A stretch of 64,000 nt of DNA from a virus (IMGVR_UViG_3300016484_000447:23773-87772); one strand, 5' to 3'. Positions 50,843 to 64,000 are shown, numbered from the stretch's first letter. Numbers and translations are program-made. Notes: generated by a model from the sequence alone, not told the origin.

Positions 50843-51060
50843 GCCCTGTCCAGGGCCAGTCCTCGCACACAAGACAGTCCTATACATGCTCTGGAAGAGC
50901 CTTATAACTAGAACTTATAAGACTGCCGGTAGGCAGTCATCATGTACTTAGACAATATGTTAGTGAGTGTCTACTAACGTACTATATAGATTAAAATAGC
51001 ATAGTTCTGGCTGTCGTGCAAGTAGGGTTTACCCCTATCAAAAAGTTTTAGGGATGCCGA
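50843..51060. promoter_or_regulatory. AT-rich divergent control region (possible operators / origin-like features)
   Basis: About 200 bp of ~35-40% GC in a 60-65% GC genome. Contains GACTGCC-GGTAG-GCAGTC hairpin, CTTATAA direct repeats, TTAGT..ACTAA dyad and T/A tracts. Lies between the leftward promoter and the first rightward genes. Confidence 0.4.
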
Positions 51061-51672: not shown

Positions 51673-52381
51673 CATGAACGAAGCTTTCGGCAATCCTGCC
51701 GGTGACTTCGACAACATTGATCCCCGCGCCCTGCTGAACCAGTGCCGCAACATCTTCGATGAGTACGTCGAACTGCTGCACGCCTTCGGTGTGAGCCCCG
51801 ATGTCCTGCACTCGTTCAAGGTCATCCACAACAACACCCTGTACGGCTTCGAGCCAACCGTGGACAAGATGGACGTGACCGAAGTCCGTGACGCCCTGTG
51901 CGACATCCAAGTCTTCGCAGGCGGCGCCCAACACCTCATGGGCGTCGATGCCGACGTGGACATGCACTCCGTCATCAACGGTGTCATGTCGCGCTTCATC
52001 AAGGACGAAGAAGACAAGCAGGCCACCATCGCCCTGCACGCTGCCAAGGGTGTCACCGATGTCTACTTCGAGGGGGAGTTCCCGCGCATGGTCATGAAGT
52101 CCGCCAGCGACCAGCCCGACGCCCCCAGGGGCAAGTTCCTGAAGTCCGCCAGCTACATGCCGACACGCTTCTACGCTCCCTTGGATGTCCGCTACGCGAA
52201 GGCCCTCGGTGCGAACGATGGTCAGGCAATGGCCTATGCCGGGACTGCTGAGATTGCGCGGGCCAGCGGGAACTCTGTCGATGCAGTGTTCTCTGGCGGC
52301 TCGATGTCGCTGAAGGTCATCGTTCCGACCGTCCCGGTGACTGTGTGCGGGACCGGCATCGTCGGTGCTGCTGACTGCTGA
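51673..52381 (+). CDS. hypothetical protein, possible MazG-like all-alpha NTP-pyrophosphohydrolase N-domain; start uncertain
   Basis: EYVE...EVRD spacing is reminiscent of the MazG ExxE/ExxD motifs. AAGGAGAG RBS at 51626 suggests a non-ATG start near 51644. C-terminal 100 aa Gly/Ala-rich. Confidence 0.35.
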
Positions 52382-52406
52382 CCAAACGCTGCTAGCCTGG
52401 ATTCAA

Positions 52407-52449
52407 GGCCGACTCGGAAATGGTTTCAACTTCGAGTCGGCCAGTTTTT
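52407..52449 (+). terminator. rho-independent terminator
   Basis: GGCCGACTCG...CGAGTCGGCC 10-bp stem followed by AGTTTTT. Confidence 0.75.
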
Positions 52450-52539
52450 CGCTGGGAAAAATGCAGTTTTGCTTGAATAGGTAAGCCCGCCCGCCCCACC
52501 CCAGCCGCCTCGCCGCCCCCGGGCGACCCCACCTGTTGC

Positions 52540-52660
52540 GCGGACGCCACACTTTTCGCATGGCGCAATGGCGCACCGCATGGCGGAACGTTCTGCATGG
52601 TGGCGCGGCGTTTCGCAATGTGGAATTTCACAGGATGGGATGGCGTTTCGCTATGTGGGG
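52540..52660. repeat. iteron-like repeat tract (GCATGGCG x3; TTTCGC[A/T][A/T]TG[G/T]GG x3)
   Basis: ttttcGCATGGCGcaatggcgcaccGCATGGCGgaacgttctGCATGGTGGCG...ggcgTTTCGCAATGTGGaatttcacaggatgggatggcgTTTCGCTATGTGGg. Non-coding 570-bp gap. Confidence 0.4.
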
Positions 52661-52903
52661 GCGGCGGGCTCCAAAAAGTTACGGGCGCAGACGGCCCTTC
52701 AGTCGATTTAGACCGAATGGCGCGATTGTAGCGGGGCGCCCGGCCCCGTCAAGCGGATTTTGGAATACCCGACCACACTGCCGGGTTATTTTTCGAGCGG
52801 GCAGGGGCGGATTACACACCCGGGGGACCGCCTGCGCCGATGCTGTGCCCACAGCATACCACAGAAAATCCCATTAGTGAGAAACCCCGCGAGCTTGTCG
52901 GGT

Positions 52904-52934
52904 TTGACACTTTCCGCGCTGGGTCTGCTATAGT
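52904..52934 (+). promoter_or_regulatory. repeated promoter unit P1 (TTGACA-19-TGcTATAGT + conserved leader GGGAACCACTGCAACACA)
   Basis: Perfect TTGACA. TGn-extended TATAGT 19 bp downstream. 32-nt leader with GGAG RBS to ATG 52967. Confidence 0.55.
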
Positions 52935-52966
52935 GGGAACCACTGCAACACACCGGAGCCCCGGAC

Positions 52967-54184: not shown

Positions 54185-54558
54185 CGCCCGGACAAGTCGC
54201 CCGCGCCCTGGAAGCCGCAGAGGCCCGATACTGGGCAGAGGTGGACCGCATCGCCGAAGCTGTCACCCGCGAGAACGTCGCCCCATTCTGCGACCGGCAC
54301 GGGGTCAGATTCCGCCCGGGGATGGGTTCATGGGATTTTGACGGGGCCGCAGCGGAAGACACCCCGCGCCGCCCCGCCCGCGCCTGGGCTAGCTGGGATT
54401 TTTCCGAACTCCCCGCGAAGCTTGCCAAAGTGCTAGACGCCCGGACCATCGGGGGGCATTCCCTGGGGGGCAATCGCCCCGGACTACACCCCGCCGAACT
54501 TCAAAGCCTGAGCGTTTTTGTCGGGCTTGACACTTCCCCCGGGCTTGCTGTGCTATAG
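54181..54558 (+). CDS. hypothetical protein (array gene e)
   Basis: 125 aa. ATGA overlap with gene d. Its 3' end runs through promoter unit P2. Confidence 0.4.
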   Translation: MTPGQVARALEAAEARYWAEVDRIAEAVTRENVAPFCDRHGVRFRPGMGSWDFDGAAAEDTPRRPARAWASWDFSELPAKLAKVLDARTIGGHSLGGNRPGLHPAELQSLSVFVGLDTSPGLAVL

Positions 54559-55231: not shown

Positions 55232-55648
55232 ATGGCACACCCCCTGCAACTCTGCACCGCAAAAGGTGCCGCACACGTCATCGGCCCCGCCAAAGGTGGC
55301 AAAATGTTGGACGAAAAAAAGCTGTCCCGCTCGTTTTCGTTCCTGGCAATCACGCCCGAAGGCGCACCCGAGGAAGTCGCCCGAATTCTGGTCTGGGGCA
55401 CTGCTGCCCGGTCTTACGCCTCCGTTTGGCTGAAGGTTCCCGGGGATTGGCGAGGTGGGCACGCCCACGCCGGGGGCTACGGCTACCACCGGGGGAGCGC
55501 CGCAGTCAATCGCGCCCTGAAGTCTGCCGGGGTGCTGCTGGATTATGACATCGAGGGCCGTGGCGAAACCGCCTATCCTGGCGCAATCGCCGCCGCGCTG
55601 CTGGCCCTGGACGAGTACCGCCCGGTCTACATGCTGCAAGCCTACTAA
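55232..55648 (+). CDS. hypothetical protein (array gene h)
   Basis: 138 aa from MAHPLQL. Confidence 0.45.
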   Translation: MAHPLQLCTAKGAAHVIGPAKGGKMLDEKKLSRSFSFLAITPEGAPEEVARILVWGTAARSYASVWLKVPGDWRGGHAHAGGYGYHRGSAAVNRALKSAGVLLDYDIEGRGETAYPGAIAAALLALDEYRPVYMLQAY

Positions 55649-55670
55649 AGACCCCGCCCCGTGTAGGGGC

Positions 55671-55702
55671 TTGACACTGCCCGGGGAAACCGGGCACAAT
55701 GC
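55671..55702 (+). promoter_or_regulatory. repeated promoter unit P4 (TTGACA ... TGCACAATGC; leader CAAAGCATCGAAACACA)
   Basis: Spacer hairpin GCCCGG-ggaaa-CCGGGC. Leader identical to P7. GGAG then ATG 55734. Confidence 0.4.
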
Positions 55703-60176: not shown

Positions 60177-60220
60177 GGCATCACTGCGAACGAAACGCAG
60201 CAATCAACGGAGTGCAGACC

Positions 60221-60403
60221 ATGCGCAAGATTCACGAAGTCACCGGCCCGAAGGGCACCGCCAAAATCTACCGCGATGCCGAGTGGCAAGAGTACCGCGT
60301 GAAGTTTTTCACGCCCGAGGGTGAACACCTGAAGGAAGCCGACCACCACACCGACGACAAGGGCGACGCGAAGCAAACCGCCGAAACCTGGGCGAACTCC
60401 TAA
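60221..60403 (+). CDS. small hypothetical protein (array gene v)
   Basis: 60 aa from MRKIHEV. His/Asp-rich C-terminus. Confidence 0.4.
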   Translation: MRKIHEVTGPKGTAKIYRDAEWQEYRVKFFTPEGEHLKEADHHTDDKGDAKQTAETWANS

Positions 60404-61196: not shown

Positions 61197-61226
61197 CCAC
61201 AGAAAGACCCCGCCCCGTGTAGGGGC

Positions 61227-61257
61227 TTGACACTTTCGGGCGCCCTGGTGTTATGAT
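61227..61257 (+). promoter_or_regulatory. repeated promoter unit P12 (TTGACA-19-TGtTATGAT in loop of GGTGT...ACACC hairpin)
   Basis: GGGCGCCC palindrome in spacer. GGAG then ATG 61290. Confidence 0.5.
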
Positions 61258-61289
61258 GACACCACACCAAACGCAACGGAGCCCGAAAC

Positions 61290-61646
61290 ATGCACACCCC
61301 CGCAATCACCGTTTACGCTGACCTCTGGCTGACCGCTGACGCCTACAATCCGCGCCTGCGTGCCACTGTCCCGGGTTCCTGGGTTCTGCGCCTGTGGGAT
61401 CGCCTGCCGGGTCAATTCCTGTCGGCCCCTGTGCCTGAATTCTACGGGAACACTCCCGACGAAGCGAAGCGCAACGCCGTGCAAGCCCTGAAGGGCTACG
61501 GGGTGCGGGGAGTGCTGAAGGTTACGCGCTGCGACGGTGACGCCCGCGAAGCCGCAGAGTCCGCAGAGTGGGAGCGGGAGCAGCGTCAAACCCTATGGGC
61601 TGAAATGGGGGGCTATGCTGCGGGTATCCCCCGCCCGTGCCACTGA
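61290..61646 (+). CDS. hypothetical protein (array gene y)
   Basis: 118 aa. Last gene of array, followed by terminators. Confidence 0.45.
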   Translation: MHTPAITVYADLWLTADAYNPRLRATVPGSWVLRLWDRLPGQFLSAPVPEFYGNTPDEAKRNAVQALKGYGVRGVLKVTRCDGDAREAAESAEWEREQRQTLWAEMGGYAAGIPRPCH

Positions 61647-61710
61647 CCACGGCAGACCCTTATTAGCCCTGTACAGGGCCAGCAAAACCGGCCCCAAACG
61701 GGGCCATTCT

Positions 61711-61731
61711 GGGGCCTTTTGGCCCCTTTTT
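61711..61731 (+). terminator. rho-independent terminator
   Basis: GGGGCC-TTTT-GGCCCC followed by TTTTTG. Confidence 0.6.
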
Positions 61732-61752
61732 GCGCCTGGGCGCCAGCACTGC

Positions 61753-62040
61753 CACAAGCCCAAAGCACAAGCAAGGGCGAAGCCCTGGGCGCCCCTGGCG
61801 CAAGCCGGGAAAGACCACAAGCACAACCACAAGCACGGGGCGAGCCGCTACCCGCGCCCCGCCCCAAAGTCTCAGAAAACCGGCCCCGAATGGGGCTTTT
61901 TGTGCTGGCCCCGTCCGGGGCTATACGTGCCCACAAGCGAAAGCCCACAAGCGAAAAAGTGTTGCGCAGCAACAACATAGGGCAATGCCTGCGCCTGGGG
62001 CGCCATACAGCACACAAGCACAAACCCACAGAAAAGCACA
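61753..62040. repeat. CACAAGC direct-repeat tract (>=7 exact copies plus variants; includes 14-bp tandem CCCACAAGCGAAAG x2)
   Basis: Exact CACAAGC at 61753, 61766, 61816, 61828, 61932, 61946, 62013. Variants CACAACC and CACAAAC. Non-coding (no RBS-led ORF). Confidence 0.5.
61881..61901 (+). terminator. rho-independent terminator (second)
   Basis: CCGGCCCC-GAAT-GGGGC followed by TTTTTG. Confidence 0.5.
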
Positions 62041-62218
62041 CAGCACCGGGAAGGGCTTAAATCAGCCCTGGAAGGGCCTAATGCACTGCCCCGAAGGGGC
62101 AGGGCTTGCCCGCGCCCTGGGGCGCCTGTAGGGGCTAAAAAGGGGCTTCATGGGGCGATAGCTTGGGGCTATGCTCTATGGGCTTGCGATAGTGAAGGGA
62201 GGGGGTTTGCTTGATCGC

Positions 62219-62251
62219 AGTTTGCGAAGAACACCAAACGTGGCGTTTTCG
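62219..62251. other. imperfect dyad TTGCGAAGAACAC-N7-GGCGTTTTCGCAA, candidate recombinase site
   Basis: 7-bp perfect inverted ends (TTGCGAA / TTCGCAA), ~33 bp overall, 44 bp downstream of the serine recombinase stop. Shares GGCGTTT(T)CGCAA with the 52.6-kb repeat tract. Confidence 0.3.
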
Positions 62252-62294
62252 CAACAAAGTGGGGCCATTACAGCCTCTGGCCCCGTGGCCCGGG

Positions 62295-62990
62295 TTATCC
62301 CTGCACTCCGAGGGCCTGAAGCCGCTTTAGAACCCCGTGAACCGTGCTAGCGTGCCATTGTCCACCCCTGGCTGTCCTGTTGCCCTGTGCGTTTAGCTCT
62401 GCTGCCATCTGGGCGCACGTCATACCCGCCGACCTCATCCGCAACACCACCGGGGCAAGGTGAAGGGCGAAGCTGTCCGCCTCTGCCTTGATCGCCTGCA
62501 CTGCCGCTGCCCGTGCCCTGGGGCCGCTTTCCTCTGGCGCCCTATGGGACGCTATGCCTAGGGCCTGTCCCCGTGCCTGGAGGGCCTTTAATGCTGCCCT
62601 GGTGCGTTCCCCGATGGTGCGCCGCTCATGCTCTGCCAGCATCGCCTTTAGGTGAAGCTGGAAGGGCTGAACCTCTAGCCCATCCTCTACCGTGGCAAAG
62701 CTGGCCCCTTGGTTCATCAGGGCCGCGACGAACTCAACCGACCGCGATAGTCGGTCAAGCTTGGACACCAGCAAGACGGCCCGCCCCTGGCGTGCCTGTG
62801 CCAGTGCCTGACGTAGACCGGGGCGCCTGTCTAGGCCATAGCCGCCTGACGCTACCTCTTCGACGTGCCCCACCTCTTCCCCTTGGTGCGACTGAATGAA
62901 GCGACGAAGGGCCGCTAGCTGGGCCTCTAACCCATTCCGGCTGTCGCCCTGTTCCTGCGTGCTTACCCTGGTGTAGAGAACGAACCGCAT
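62295..62990 (-). CDS. serine recombinase (resolvase/invertase family) with C-terminal HTH
   Basis: MRFVLYTRVSTQEQ places catalytic Ser at position 10 as in gamma-delta resolvase. Also LVSKLDRLSR and a C-terminal helix-turn-helix. Start placed at second ATG, downstream of a TATAAT. Confidence 0.75.
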   Translation of the reverse strand: MRFVLYTRVSTQEQGDSRNGLEAQLAALRRFIQSHQGEEVGHVEEVASGGYGLDRRPGLRQALAQARQGRAVLLVSKLDRLSRSVEFVAALMNQGASFATVEDGLEVQPFQLHLKAMLAEHERRTIGERTRAALKALQARGQALGIASHRAPEESGPRARAAAVQAIKAEADSFALHLAPVVLRMRSAGMTCAQMAAELNAQGNRTARGGQWHASTVHGVLKRLQALGVQG

Positions 62991-63026
62991 ACGCTGGCCC
63001 CTGTGGAAGTGATCGAAGCCCCGATT

Positions 63027-63055
63027 ATACACGATCTAGACGCCCCTCTAGATTC
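63027..63055 (-). promoter_or_regulatory. putative recombinase promoter (TATAAT) with TCTAGA-N6-TCTAGA palindromic repeats over the -35 region
   Basis: On the minus strand TCTAGAGGGGCGTCTAGATCGTG-TATAAT, 32 nt upstream of ATG 62990. Confidence 0.35.
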
Positions 63056-63313
63056 CTGAATGGGGGCTGTTGCGTGCTGTTCGAGGCAGACGGGAAGGGC
63101 TGGACGGGGCCGGGGCTGTCATATTTTCAGGGCTTGGCACGGGCGAGAAGGGGGAATAGGCCGCCGTTAAGCAACGCACTCACGTATGCCCCACATTCCA
63201 AAATAGCCCCACTCGCGCCTGCATAGGATTTGCATATCGACCCTGCCCTGGTCATATATTCTGGCTATGCCTGCAAGCACTATGCCAAAGTCGGGCTACC
63301 CACCAAATTTTTT

Positions 63314-63812
63314 TTACGCAGATTTTGGAACGAAATTTACAAGGGCGTCGTAAACTCCATCTCTCAGGTTTGGCCTGTGCTTATCTGCGAGAGTCAGAAT
63401 GGTAGCCCTCTTCTCCGCGTAGTACGCAGCGGGCCTCTCATGCTTGTATGGGAGCCTCAAGGCATTGTTCAACTCTGTAGGCAGTAGGCAGCAGGTGTCG
63501 GGACTGTAGACTTTGGCGCCAGTGCTGAGAAGGTCTTTGTCTACCTGCCAGTCCCTGTCCCACCACATAGGTTGGACGATCAAGAATTCGCAGAACTCTT
63601 GAAAGTTGGCGAAACCGAATTCGACACCTGTGTAGGCCCTACCGCCAGGGTAACGCTGTGAAGACCCACCAACGGTAGTCCTCGCTTTGATCTGGTGCCA
63701 CAGCCTTCCAAATCTGGTGAGAGTGGACTTGCCGTTGAGCTTAAAGCTCTGGACATATCCTTCATCACCGACTGCCCAAAAGTCTAAGTAGTGCATGGAG
63801 ACTTTGTTTGTC
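63314..63812 (-). CDS. hypothetical protein in lower-GC segment
   Basis: 166 aa from MTNKVSMHY. GAAGGAAG RBS. Preceded by GCCGCCCTTGAGGCGGC hairpin. ~50% GC versus ~63% elsewhere. Confidence 0.4.
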
Positions 63813-63849
63813 ATAGCTTCCTTCAAGTATAAAGCCGCCTCAAGGGCGG

Positions 63850-64000
63850 CTGTCGTCACTCTGCGTAGTGCTTCCTGTATCGCTCTTCGGCGCACTCCAC
63901 GCACACTCTGCAACGCTTGGCAACGTTGAACATCGTGTTCTTGCAGTCGGAACAGGTGTTCATGTACTTTCCAGGGGCATACCCGAAGTCCTTCAAAGTT
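63850..64000 (-). CDS. partial gene (3' end), C-terminal zinc ribbon; start beyond window
   Basis: Frame open to the window edge. C-terminus ...YMNTCSDCKNTMFNVAKRCRVCVECAEERYRKHYAE* (CxxC...CxxC). Confidence 0.35.

Follow-up and report, generated by a model that had tools for sequence, protein, structure and literature searches.

The DNA analysed here, IMGVR_UViG_3300016484_000447:23773-87772, is a 64,000-nucleotide stretch (the window, always taken at its full length) from an uncultured, virulent-type phage with a genome of about 88 kb, of which 73 kb, the window included, were examined. At 61647-62294 it contains a non-coding gap of 648 bp, on which an array of about 25 small early genes on the + strand (approximately 10 kb) and an operon on the - strand converge, the last gene of this operon coding for a small serine recombinase (Table 1). 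What we describe is a probable terminal or termination junction adjoined by the gene for a small serine recombinase whose family has not been studied, a combination conserved in an uncultured clade of virulent-type phages. The same DNA is present, without differences, on an 87,915-bp ENA contig, and also in a Logan assembly in two pieces of 82,244 and 5,587 bp; this split is due to a 30-bp exact direct repeat, AGACCCCGCCCCGTGTAGGGGCTTGACACT (55645-55674 and 61205-61234), which forms the hairpin and the -35 box of two array promoters. The gene content is of the virulent type, with the phage's own DNA polymerase, primase-helicase, ribonucleotide reductase and NAMPT recognised with PHROGs. Neither megablast nor sensitive blastn matched the locus to any of 50,697 cultured phage records, and the phage is a distant relative of the Pseudomonas phage genera Otagovirus and Pakpunavirus, the group nearest to it by protein (approximately 55% identity in the primase-helicase).

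Table 1. Features in and around the gap between the small-gene array and the recombinase gene, ordered by position in the window.
Feature	Position	Strand	Description or basis
Last array gene, left border of the junction	61290-61646	+	118 amino acids; in the list of open reading frames and called as a gene on both identical contigs (ENA, Logan)
Terminator cluster at array end	61664-61731	both	Terminator scan and hairpin list
Palindrome GCCCTGTACAGGGC in terminator cluster	61666-61679		14 bp, perfect
Hairpin with T-run on - strand	61689-61706		In terminator cluster
Hairpin followed by TTTTTG on + strand	61711-61726		In terminator cluster
Polar repeat tract	61753-62043	+	Seven exact CACAAGC and variants (CCCACAG, CACACAGC)
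Bidirectional terminator-like hairpin GGCCCCGAATGGGGC	61882-61902		T-runs on both strands; terminator scan
Hairpin TGTTGCTGCGCAACA, then CTTTTTCG	61960-61974	-	Terminator scan
Conserved block AGGCCCTTCCAGGGCTGATTTAAGCCCTTCCC (recombinase-sense)	62046-62081	-	Hairpin GCCCT-TCC-AGGGC with U-rich tail
Conserved asymmetric core	62187-62223	-	AAACTGCGATCAAGCAAACC at 62204-62223, then pyrimidine-rich spacer and CTATCGC
Imperfect dyad TTGCGAAGAACACCAAACGTGGCGTTTTCGCAA	62222-62254	both	33 bp; RNAfold pairs both strands
Small serine recombinase gene	62295-62990	-	231 amino acids, starts MRFVLYTRVSTQEQ; Ser10 in YTRVSTQEQ
Recombinase promoter	63024-63053	-	-10 box TATAAT (63024-63029); dyad ATCTAGAGGGGCGTCTAGAT (63034-63053) over the -35 box
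Conserved upstream non-coding region	63054-63313	-	Alignment of 11 lineages
Upstream element AAAATATGAC	63121-63127 (core)		
G-rich repeat ending in GCTTAACGG	63164-63177		
Upstream element GAATATATGACC	63250-63261		
A8T3 tract	63296-63306		
HNH-endonuclease-like gene	63314-63814	-	166 amino acids from ATG; phrog_953, E = 3e-18

The arrangement around the gap recurs in at least nine lineages with 48-100% recombinase identity, in each of which a conserved non-coding region of approximately 280-780 bp precedes the recombinase gene and 450-990 bp of non-coding DNA follow it, with a convergent small-gene array beyond this tract in eight lineages, i.e. wherever the contig extends that far. The contigs are metagenomic and mostly 80-93 kb in size. 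The lineages compared, with 48-73% identity to the recombinase of the window, are designated L043, L331, L333, L047, L335, L048, L416/L417 and L007, to which L208 (53%) was added for its conserved upstream region. Downstream of the gene the elements also come in a recurring order, starting with a variable hairpin, followed by a conserved core, a hairpin with a T-rich tail, and a chain of hairpins interleaved with short repeats. According to the alignments, the recombinase gene is bordered on either side by non-coding elements which are conserved and locus-specific.

The encoded protein is a member of the serine recombinase superfamily in which, as judged from its sequence, the catalytic residues are all there. 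An earlier reading made from the sequence alone (the sequence-only reading) had proposed a small serine recombinase with Ser10 in YTRVSTQEQ, and this was borne out: Pfam family PF00239 matches residues 4-142 (E = 5e-27), with a weak match of PF07508 to residues 183-228, and residues Y6, R8, S10, T11, Q14, D79, R80, R83, E120, E122 and R123 are invariant in an alignment of 23 family members, with D79, R80 and R83 located in the KLDRLSR segment. In an AlphaFold2 model (mean predicted local distance difference test score of 91), the catalytic domain and the long E-helix (residues 109-139), which in this superfamily provides the interface of dimer and tetramer, are followed by an additional long helix (152-187) and, at the C-terminus, by a helix-turn-helix (192-226), and the model contains nothing beyond the latter. 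The helix-turn-helix segment TARGGxW..STV is nearly invariant in the family, and hence a shared DNA motif is to be expected across its members. The best structural matches of the catalytic domain in a Foldseek search were IS607-type TnpA, Bxb1, TP901-1, phiC31 and Sin, and the best phmmer sequence match among solved structures was the Gin invertase (E = 3e-9); PHROGs labels the protein a DNA invertase, and none of the NCBIfam equivalogs applies to it. The family is uncharacterised and phage-associated, and the protein resembles a truncated large serine recombinase.

A family search with a threshold of E <= 1e-10 gave 1,874 proteins, and contigs of 75-93 kb carry the genes for many of the nearest ones. 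The close relatives (60-94% identity) come from metagenome-type sources, many of them from phage-sized contigs, and a metagenome scan with the family alignment and a scan of bacterial genomes both gave, among the matches listed, only homologues of <=49% identity. Homologues with 40-49% identity are common in alphaproteobacterial, Massilia and Duganella genomes, often in several copies, such as L339, L342 and L347 on one alphaproteobacterial contig and L344, L348, L351 and L381 in one metagenome-assembled genome of the Azospirillaceae. Among individual homologues, L355 lies between the AAA_25 replication gene and the terminase gene of a prophage, in the middle of the element and not at its end, and L371 adjoins a pair of SMODS and S_4TM genes resembling a cyclic oligonucleotide-based antiphage signalling system. 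Flanking inverted repeats, which were looked for beside the bacterial homologues as signs of invertible segments, were not found.

The gap itself is dense in secondary structure, with 13 perfect GC-rich hairpins in the 470 bp between 61660 and 62125, or about 14 per kb compared with about 3 per kb elsewhere (approximately 5-fold background); at looser settings the density is 24.7 per kb in the gap vs 5-7 per kb elsewhere in the window. Terminator-like sites are present on both strands, with nine found where 3.5 are expected, and since a strict scan detected only one other terminator-like site on the + strand of the 10-kb array (at 54383), the predicted main stops of the array lie in the gap. 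Both strands fold better than shuffled controls without strand preference (z = -3.8 and -3.7), and folding therefore does not discriminate between the possible readings of the locus. The terminator cluster at the end of the array is nearly identical in L043 (very few mismatches in the final ~110 bases of the alignment), with the recombinases only 72% identical, and its palindrome GCCCTGTACAGGGC, or the variant GCCCTGTCCAGGGC, recurs in non-coding DNA of the relatives (three times in L043, four times in L416 and once in L333); a palindrome of this type is also found elsewhere in the window (50843-50856). The bidirectional hairpin at 61882-61902 is part of a 42-nt inverted repeat with 61664-61705, and the hairpin at 61960-61974 is a candidate terminator for transcripts arriving from the recombinase side. 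Closer to the recombinase gene, the block at 62046-62081 is identical in L043, and its hairpin and T-rich tail are also present in L047, L335 and L333; a hairpin GCCCTTCCAGGGC with T-rich tail is a recurring element downstream of the recombinase gene in the relatives.

Interspersed with these hairpins is the repeat tract, in which the sequence-only reading had noticed at least seven exact CACAAGC heptamers plus variants, as well as a tandem 14-mer. Seven exact copies are indeed present (starting at 61753, 61766, 61816, 61828, 61932, 61946 and 62013), all on the + strand and within 267 bp (61753-62019), and so is the tandem 14-mer at 61930-61957, which is made up of CCCACAAGCGAAAG (61930-61943) and CCCACAAGCGAAAA (61944-61957) with 13 of the 14 positions matching. 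The other 63.7 kb of the window contain 13 copies of CACAAGC distributed over both strands, with approximately 13.7 expected for the whole window. The cluster is significant, and no other 7-mer is as strongly clustered anywhere in the 73 kb. The heptamers are paired at distances of 12-14 bp, and the pairs are 63-130 bp apart and alternate with GCGCC..GGCGC and GCCCC..GGGGC hairpins. Between lineages the repeats have changed in concert: each GCTTGTGG of the window (in recombinase sense) is replaced by GTCTGTGG at the homologous position of L043, and the repeat of L047 and L335 is GTTTGTG, which gives the lineage versions CACAAGC, CACAGAC and CACAAAC. The polarity has been kept, with YTGTG occurring 52 times on the recombinase-sense strand vs 12 times on the other strand in 10 lineages. 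Concerted change and retained polarity support the view that the tract behaves like a functional cis element.

Several known motifs were compared with the heptamers and rejected. The E. coli Chi sequence is GCTGGTGG, and GCTTGTGG agrees with it at seven of eight positions; this idea was set aside, as sister lineages with probably similar hosts differ in their heptamers, and it is further weakened by the lack of enrichment of the motif elsewhere in the genome. With the DnaA box the heptamers have only TGTGG in common, and primase recognition triplets, CRP half-sites and the CA-motifs of Hfq or Crc do not fit either.

The 20-bp core AAACTGCRATYAAGCAAACC is located 72-151 bp past the recombinase stop codon across the relatives, and is followed by a pyrimidine-rich spacer and CTAT. 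It is present in L043, L331, L333, L047, L335 and L048 and partially in L416 and L417, and in the window it occurs as a single copy (0.02 expected by chance), even when up to three mismatches are allowed. A motif such as the nearly invariant helix-turn-helix leads one to expect does exist, as the core shares AAACTGCAA with a palindrome, CAAACTGCAAAC-GGTG-GTTTGCAGTTTG, located at -27 to -50 of the start codon in a distant subclade (42-45% identity), and ACTGCAA is approximately 9-fold enriched in the 100 bp upstream of recombinase family members. We consider 62187-62223 a candidate recombinase-binding or recombination site on the basis of these comparisons, although it could alternatively be a weak promoter, TCAAGC-N17-TATCGC, which points into the hairpin tract. 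A dyad like that of hix or gix was rejected as the defining site, the GGTTT half being missing in the window and in three relatives, and an exact-pattern scan of IMG/VR with a degenerate form of the core, which proved too loose a pattern, gave 120 chance matches, none of them with a recombinase.

The sequence-only reading had also described a 33-bp imperfect dyad, which is found at 62222-62254 and pairs in RNAfold on both strands. At its position between stop codon and core every relative has a hairpin of other sequence, for instance GTTGCGAAAACGCAAC in L043, CTGCGGC..GCCGCAG in L047 and L335, and CCCCTGTACCGGGG in L333, and the element probably forms a stem-loop in the recombinase mRNA, at its 3' end. 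In L047 the core is followed by three to four tandem units of approximately 47 bp, AAACAA..CTAG..TCTATTGTTC..CTATAGAACACC (L047:6824-7000), which look like an array of binding sites.

On the other side of the gene, the proposed TATAAT promoter overlapped by TCTAGA-N6-TCTAGA could be retraced, with TCTAGA at 63035-63040 and 63047-63052. The -10 box aligns as TAnnnT in all 11 relatives, and the window, L043 and L331, as the three closest lineages, have all retained the dyad in the form ATCTAR-N8-YTAGAT. The promoter was not called in a strict sigma-70 scan because of its weak -35 box. From the position of the dyad over the -35 box, the recombinase is probably self-regulated. Further upstream, an A/T tract, AATATAT, a G-rich repeat ending in CTTAAC, and AAATAT(C/G) align in all 11 lineages along with TAnnnT, and the TTAA and A(A)TAT blocks are invariant even at 48-53% recombinase identity; in the window, RAAATAT is confined to the region upstream of the recombinase gene. 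Two AATAT(AT)GAC motifs lie approximately 125 bp apart, and no set of subsites with a common half-site could be defined in this region.

The array which faces the gap is strongly promoted. A strict scan of the array region gave seven sigma-70-type promoters on the + strand, vs 1.5 promoter-like sites expected for both strands, with the consensus GGGGCTTGACAC-N17-CACAAT..ACTGCAAC, and between 52940 and 60190 the intergenic regions carry a repeated early-promoter cassette, GGGGCTTGACAC-N17-(C/T)A(C/T)AAT-GGGAACC-ACTGCAAC-CA-rich leader-GGAG, also present in L047 and L335. The last gene of the array is preceded by a sigma-70-like promoter TTGACA...TATGAT (61228-61268). At the predicted transcription starts of 10 array promoters we found ACTGCRA, with 10 sense copies where approximately one is expected and no antisense copies, and the ACTGC-type 7-mer of these promoters also occurs within the core and within the palindromes upstream of the distant recombinase homologues; this may be a coincidence or a pointer to a regulatory role. 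The 63-residue array protein encoded at 60212-60403 has 55 homologues in cultured phages, some of them encoded by early genes which T7-like Pseudomonas phages carry at the left end, and since all 55 are from Pseudomonas phages, its sequence suggests a Pseudomonas-like host and an early role in host takeover. The left, divergent border of the array is formed by a 585-bp non-coding region (52380-52964) with several (C)ATGGCG(C/G) and GCGTTTCGC(A/T)ATGTGG repeats, and could be another region that acts in cis.

In its continuation past the right end of the window (L001:1-9700), the recombinase operon on the - strand codes for an RNA ligase (PF09414), RtcB, a Macro-domain protein, a DUF4031 protein and an RMF-like peptide, and looks like an RNA-repair and anti-defence set. 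The neighbouring HNH-endonuclease-like gene lies in a patch that is poorer in GC (0.53 vs approximately 0.60, in 63001-64000) and its product is weakly similar to gp157 of PaP1, which is encoded in the terminal region of the PaP1 genome. Several relatives have an unrelated gene of approximately 190 residues in this slot, where the alignment consists of two unrelated protein types, and the HNH-like neighbour was for that reason dropped as a possible partner protein of the recombinase.

For the interpretation of the junction we turned to the genome ends of the cultured relatives, whose location at junctions of this kind had escaped the sequence-only reading, as had the core (62204-62223) and the conserved 280 bp before the recombinase gene. 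The record of PaP1 is linear, and according to the literature its genome is terminally redundant. Phage phiPsa374 has annotated direct terminal repeats of 526 bp (PMC9796965). In both, the terminal repeats or record ends coincide with a non-coding junction of 1.1-2.3 kb on which small genes of the + and - strands converge, with 9-13 hairpins per kb vs 2-7 per kb in the flanking regions. The array protein encoded at 60212-60403 is homologous to gp168 of phiPsa374 (47% identity, E = 4e-9), and in several Otagovirus records the homologues, gp168 being one of them, are encoded approximately 1.3-1.7 kb from the right end of the genome. From this positional match with the junctions of the cultured relatives we infer that the locus corresponds to a terminal-repeat junction. 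Contig ends were also considered as a sign of physical ends or of inversion and were discarded, as the break in the Logan assembly falls at the 30-bp promoter repeat, and the other contig ends near recombinase genes belong to unrelated phage types.

Our tentative interpretation, which we hold at somewhat less than an even chance, is that the locus combines a transcription terminator and a genome-end junction with a resident, probably self-regulated recombinase acting on a single site. The chain of GC hairpins, several of them with T-runs, would stop transcription coming from the strongly promoted array as well as from the recombinase operon. By its position the junction would be the genome-end region, and the polar CACAAGC-type repeats would then most likely be signals for the genome end, for concatemer junctions or for packaging, which a lineage-specific phage protein reads in a single direction. 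The 231-residue recombinase is a fixed resident at the edge of this region, with its own promoter and a conserved dyad as putative operator, and would most likely act on one site in the junction, for which 62187-62223 is the candidate. Its partners would be two genome copies or the terminal repeats, with cyclization or multimer resolution as the outcome, and not inversion or excision of the array.

A number of observations speak against this interpretation. The assignment to a terminal repeat is made by positional analogy with relatives that share only about 55% identity in the primase-helicase and no similarity at the DNA level, and whose gene order differs elsewhere in the genome. A need for a site-specific recombinase is not known in phages with terminal repeats. 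An AAACC-NN-GGTTT dyad is present at the core of L043, L333 and L047 and absent from the window, L331, L416 and L417, and with an asymmetric core in the window and a patchy dyad, the site does not resemble crossover sites of the classical dyad type, and it may be no more than a promoter. The concerted change of the repeats could have come about by gene conversion among the copies rather than by co-evolution with a protein, and the search for a partner site covered 73 of the approximately 88 kb.

A more specific proposal, for which we see a distinctly low probability, is cyclization in the manner of Cre/lox, with a single site within the direct terminal repeat through which linear DNA or concatemers are converted into unit circles, or circles into packageable multimers. 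In a bolder variant, the recombinase would in addition bind ACTGCAA at the approximately 10 early-promoter transcription starts and shut the array off.

Turning from the genome-end interpretation to its rivals, the one that survives best, and which we nevertheless regard as unlikely, is a replication origin with an adjacent multimer resolvase. The heptamers would then be lineage-specific initiator sites, with host DnaA boxes in their place in some lineages, unwinding would take place at the AT-rich core or at the A8T3 tract, and dimers arising in replication would be separated by the recombinase, in the way known from plasmid ori-res modules. Three of the more distant family members indeed have clusters of two to three perfect DnaA boxes (TTATCCACA or TGTGGATAA) at no more than approximately 400 bp from the recombinase gene, namely L007 (L007:16916-16965, downstream), L208 (three boxes at approximately -410 to -283 from the start) and L174 (+292 and +321 from the stop), and an origin would also accommodate the lineage-specific repeats with their concerted change, the conserved AT-rich tracts (core and A8T3) in DNA with otherwise 62% GC, the G-rich tandem repeats (16-28 bp) which precede the gene in several lineages, and the position of a homologue after the replication module of a bacterial prophage. 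The tract of the window, however, has no DnaA box at <=1 mismatch anywhere near it, and its repeats, of only 7-8 bp, follow each other at irregular distances with GC hairpins in between, whereas iterons are 17-22 bp and phased. No initiator gene is adjacent, GC and AT skew track transcription only (and skew was dropped as an origin marker for this reason), and there were no partition genes among the genes listed and checked around the locus, where the sequence-only reading had considered an iteron origin coupled to a partition resolvase. In phage T5, DnaA boxes located in the terminal repeat have been argued not to constitute an origin (bioRxiv 10.1101/866236).

It is rather improbable that the tract functions only as an insulator, consisting of bidirectional intrinsic terminators and C-rich, G-poor stretches at which Rho is loaded onto array transcripts that read through, with the recombinase as an unrelated and possibly selfish passenger like the HNH gene. 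A convergent junction with strong promoters on one side, hairpins with T-runs on both strands, folding better than shuffled sequence without strand preference, CA-rich, G-poor linkers on the + strand with motifs spaced 12-14 nt, and a variable HNH slot next door would all be consistent with such an arrangement, which does not account well for the maintenance of the recombinase at the same position across a deep clade with conserved non-coding blocks on both sides. Base composition alone would also not require the concerted replacement of exact heptamers, and a tract of 450-990 bp with at least 13 hairpins far exceeds what termination needs.

We think it more doubtful still that the junction marks the boundary of a first-step transfer, or injection stop, as in T5. 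Under this model the array is a pre-early block which enters the cell first, possibly as a long terminal repeat (T5, SPO1), and the tract of repeats and palindromes halts DNA entry until the pre-early proteins have acted. The first-step-transfer region of T5 ends in conserved untranslated DNA with direct repeats, palindromes and DnaA boxes, into which an HNH gene is inserted (bioRxiv 10.1101/866236), and there, as at the present locus, the non-coding DNA is better conserved than the neighbouring open reading frames (Davison, bioRxiv 10.1101/866236). The likeness in layout is clear, as some 25 small genes under repeated strong sigma-70-type promoters are followed by a conserved untranslated region of repeats and palindromes, with DnaA boxes in the relatives, and one of the array proteins is homologous to left-end early genes of T7-like Pseudomonas phages. 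Transcription of the array runs towards the junction, however, and does not lead away from an end, the terminal repeat measures 526 bp and not 10 kb in the nearest cultured relative whose ends are annotated, and no homologues of T5 A1, A2 or dmp were seen, though no search was aimed at them. We know of two-step injection only in T5-like phages.

Very unlikely, in our view, is a role for the core as promoter (TTAAAC or TCAAGC, N15-17, TATnnn) of at least one non-coding RNA that would extend, in recombinase sense, across the hairpins and the GU-rich repeats. In nine lineages the boxes resembling -35 and -10 elements have been conserved with a spacing of 15-17, a conserved hairpin with a U-rich tail lies approximately 110-130 nt downstream, and the strand bias of YTGTG and the folding score (z = -3.7) fit a transcript. 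On the other hand, Rfam gave nothing above threshold (best E = 0.13), the distance from core to hairpin ranges from approximately 85 to 290 nt between lineages, the -10 box does not have the conserved final T in most lineages, and hairpins, being palindromic, give no information on which strand matters.

The sequence-only reading had suggested that the locus governs rearrangement or excision of the adjacent array, or is of the att type, and had proposed a comparison of related genomes for alternative orientations. No second copy of any junction element was present in the 73 kb, and a blastn-short comparison of 61600-63350 with the other 71 kb gave chance-level matches only. The array has the same convergent orientation in all eight lineages which show it and in both assemblies of this phage, which, as far as the assemblies allow, approaches a fixed arrangement in all relatives, one of the outcomes that the sequence-only reading had itself set against its proposal. 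With neither a partner site nor a change of orientation in any relative showing the array, inversion and excision are not supported. A switch of this kind, or the attP-integrase module of a temperate phage, is scarcely tenable: although the recombinase looks active from its sequence, has conserved DNA elements beside its gene, is labelled a DNA invertase and matches Gin best among solved structures, a second site, inverted or direct, is absent from the 73 kb, the assembly breaks come from the promoter repeat and not from rearrangement at the core, the 231-residue protein has no large C-terminal domains (no zinc-ribbon or coiled-coil domain as in serine integrases), the gene content is that of a virulent phage, the close relatives are metagenomic, the bacterial homologues among the matches listed reach at most 49% identity, and the prophage homologue lies mid-element.

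A conserved site-specific recombinase is not expected in virulent phages with their own replication machinery, and here it is fixed, with conserved DNA on both sides, in a large uncultured clade. If the genome is cyclized or resolved at the terminal junction as in the genome-end interpretation, this would be a new solution to the problem of DNA ends after injection, and cyclization, if true, would free a whole clade of 80-93 kb virulent phages from host recombination and shield their ends from RecBCD. The junction offers a concrete and testable place in which the termini and packaging signals may lie in phages so far recorded from metagenomes only, and a compact 231-residue serine recombinase with a short candidate site would be of interest as a tool, if its role holds. 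Should the locus turn out to be a mere stack of terminators with a passenger gene, the finding is an ordinary one.

Comparison with known systems places the locus between several of them. The crossover site of Hin and Gin is a 26-bp dyad with 12-bp half-sites around a 2-bp centre, and large serine integrases exceed 400 residues. With the invertases Hin, Gin, Cin and Pin our protein shares a homologous catalytic domain, and the AAACC-NN-GGTTT centre in three relatives is reminiscent of hix and gix; unlike in those systems, there is no second inverted site or invertible segment in the 73 kb, the dyad is missing in the window and several relatives, and our protein differs by an additional helix of 35 residues and by its C-terminal domain, for which the match is instead to the first part of the Pfam 'Recombinase' domain. 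Bxb1, phiC31, TP901-1 and IS607-type TnpA are the best structural matches to the catalytic domain, and the weak PF07508 match points in the same direction, whereas the protein described here, at 231 residues, has no zinc-ribbon, coiled-coil or N-terminal MerR-type domain, and an att-like pair or element ends were not found at the locus. T5 has small pre-early genes followed by conserved untranslated repeats and palindromes with an HNH endonuclease gene nearby, just as in the window; its elements are contained in a 10-kb terminal repeat with eight DnaA boxes in fixed pairs, of which the window has none, and it has neither a recombinase at that position nor homology to the window.

Cre is a tyrosine recombinase, and a res site consists of two to three dyad subsites upstream of the resolvase gene. 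With P1 Cre/lox and the res-resolvase modules (Tn3, gamma-delta, Sin, beta, ParA), the locus shares a gene beside its cis site and a promoter overlapping a dyad, which would suit autoregulation, and a single site per genome copy would suit cyclization or dimer resolution. In contrast to these modules, the candidate site is asymmetric and located downstream, the upstream blocks form no recognisable dyad subsites, and the setting, compared with the res modules, is a virulent-type phage genome and not a plasmid. The junctions of phiPsa374 and PaP1 differ from ours in having no recombinase and no DNA similarity to it, within genomes of different overall gene order, and for the present genome the ends are putative. 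They have in common with it a long convergent non-coding junction of raised hairpin density, and phiPsa374 resembles it further in the gp168 gene next to the right end, whose product is homologous to the array protein encoded at 60212-60403, in a CA-rich stretch and terminator directly after the last + strand gene and in tandem repeats inside the terminal repeat.

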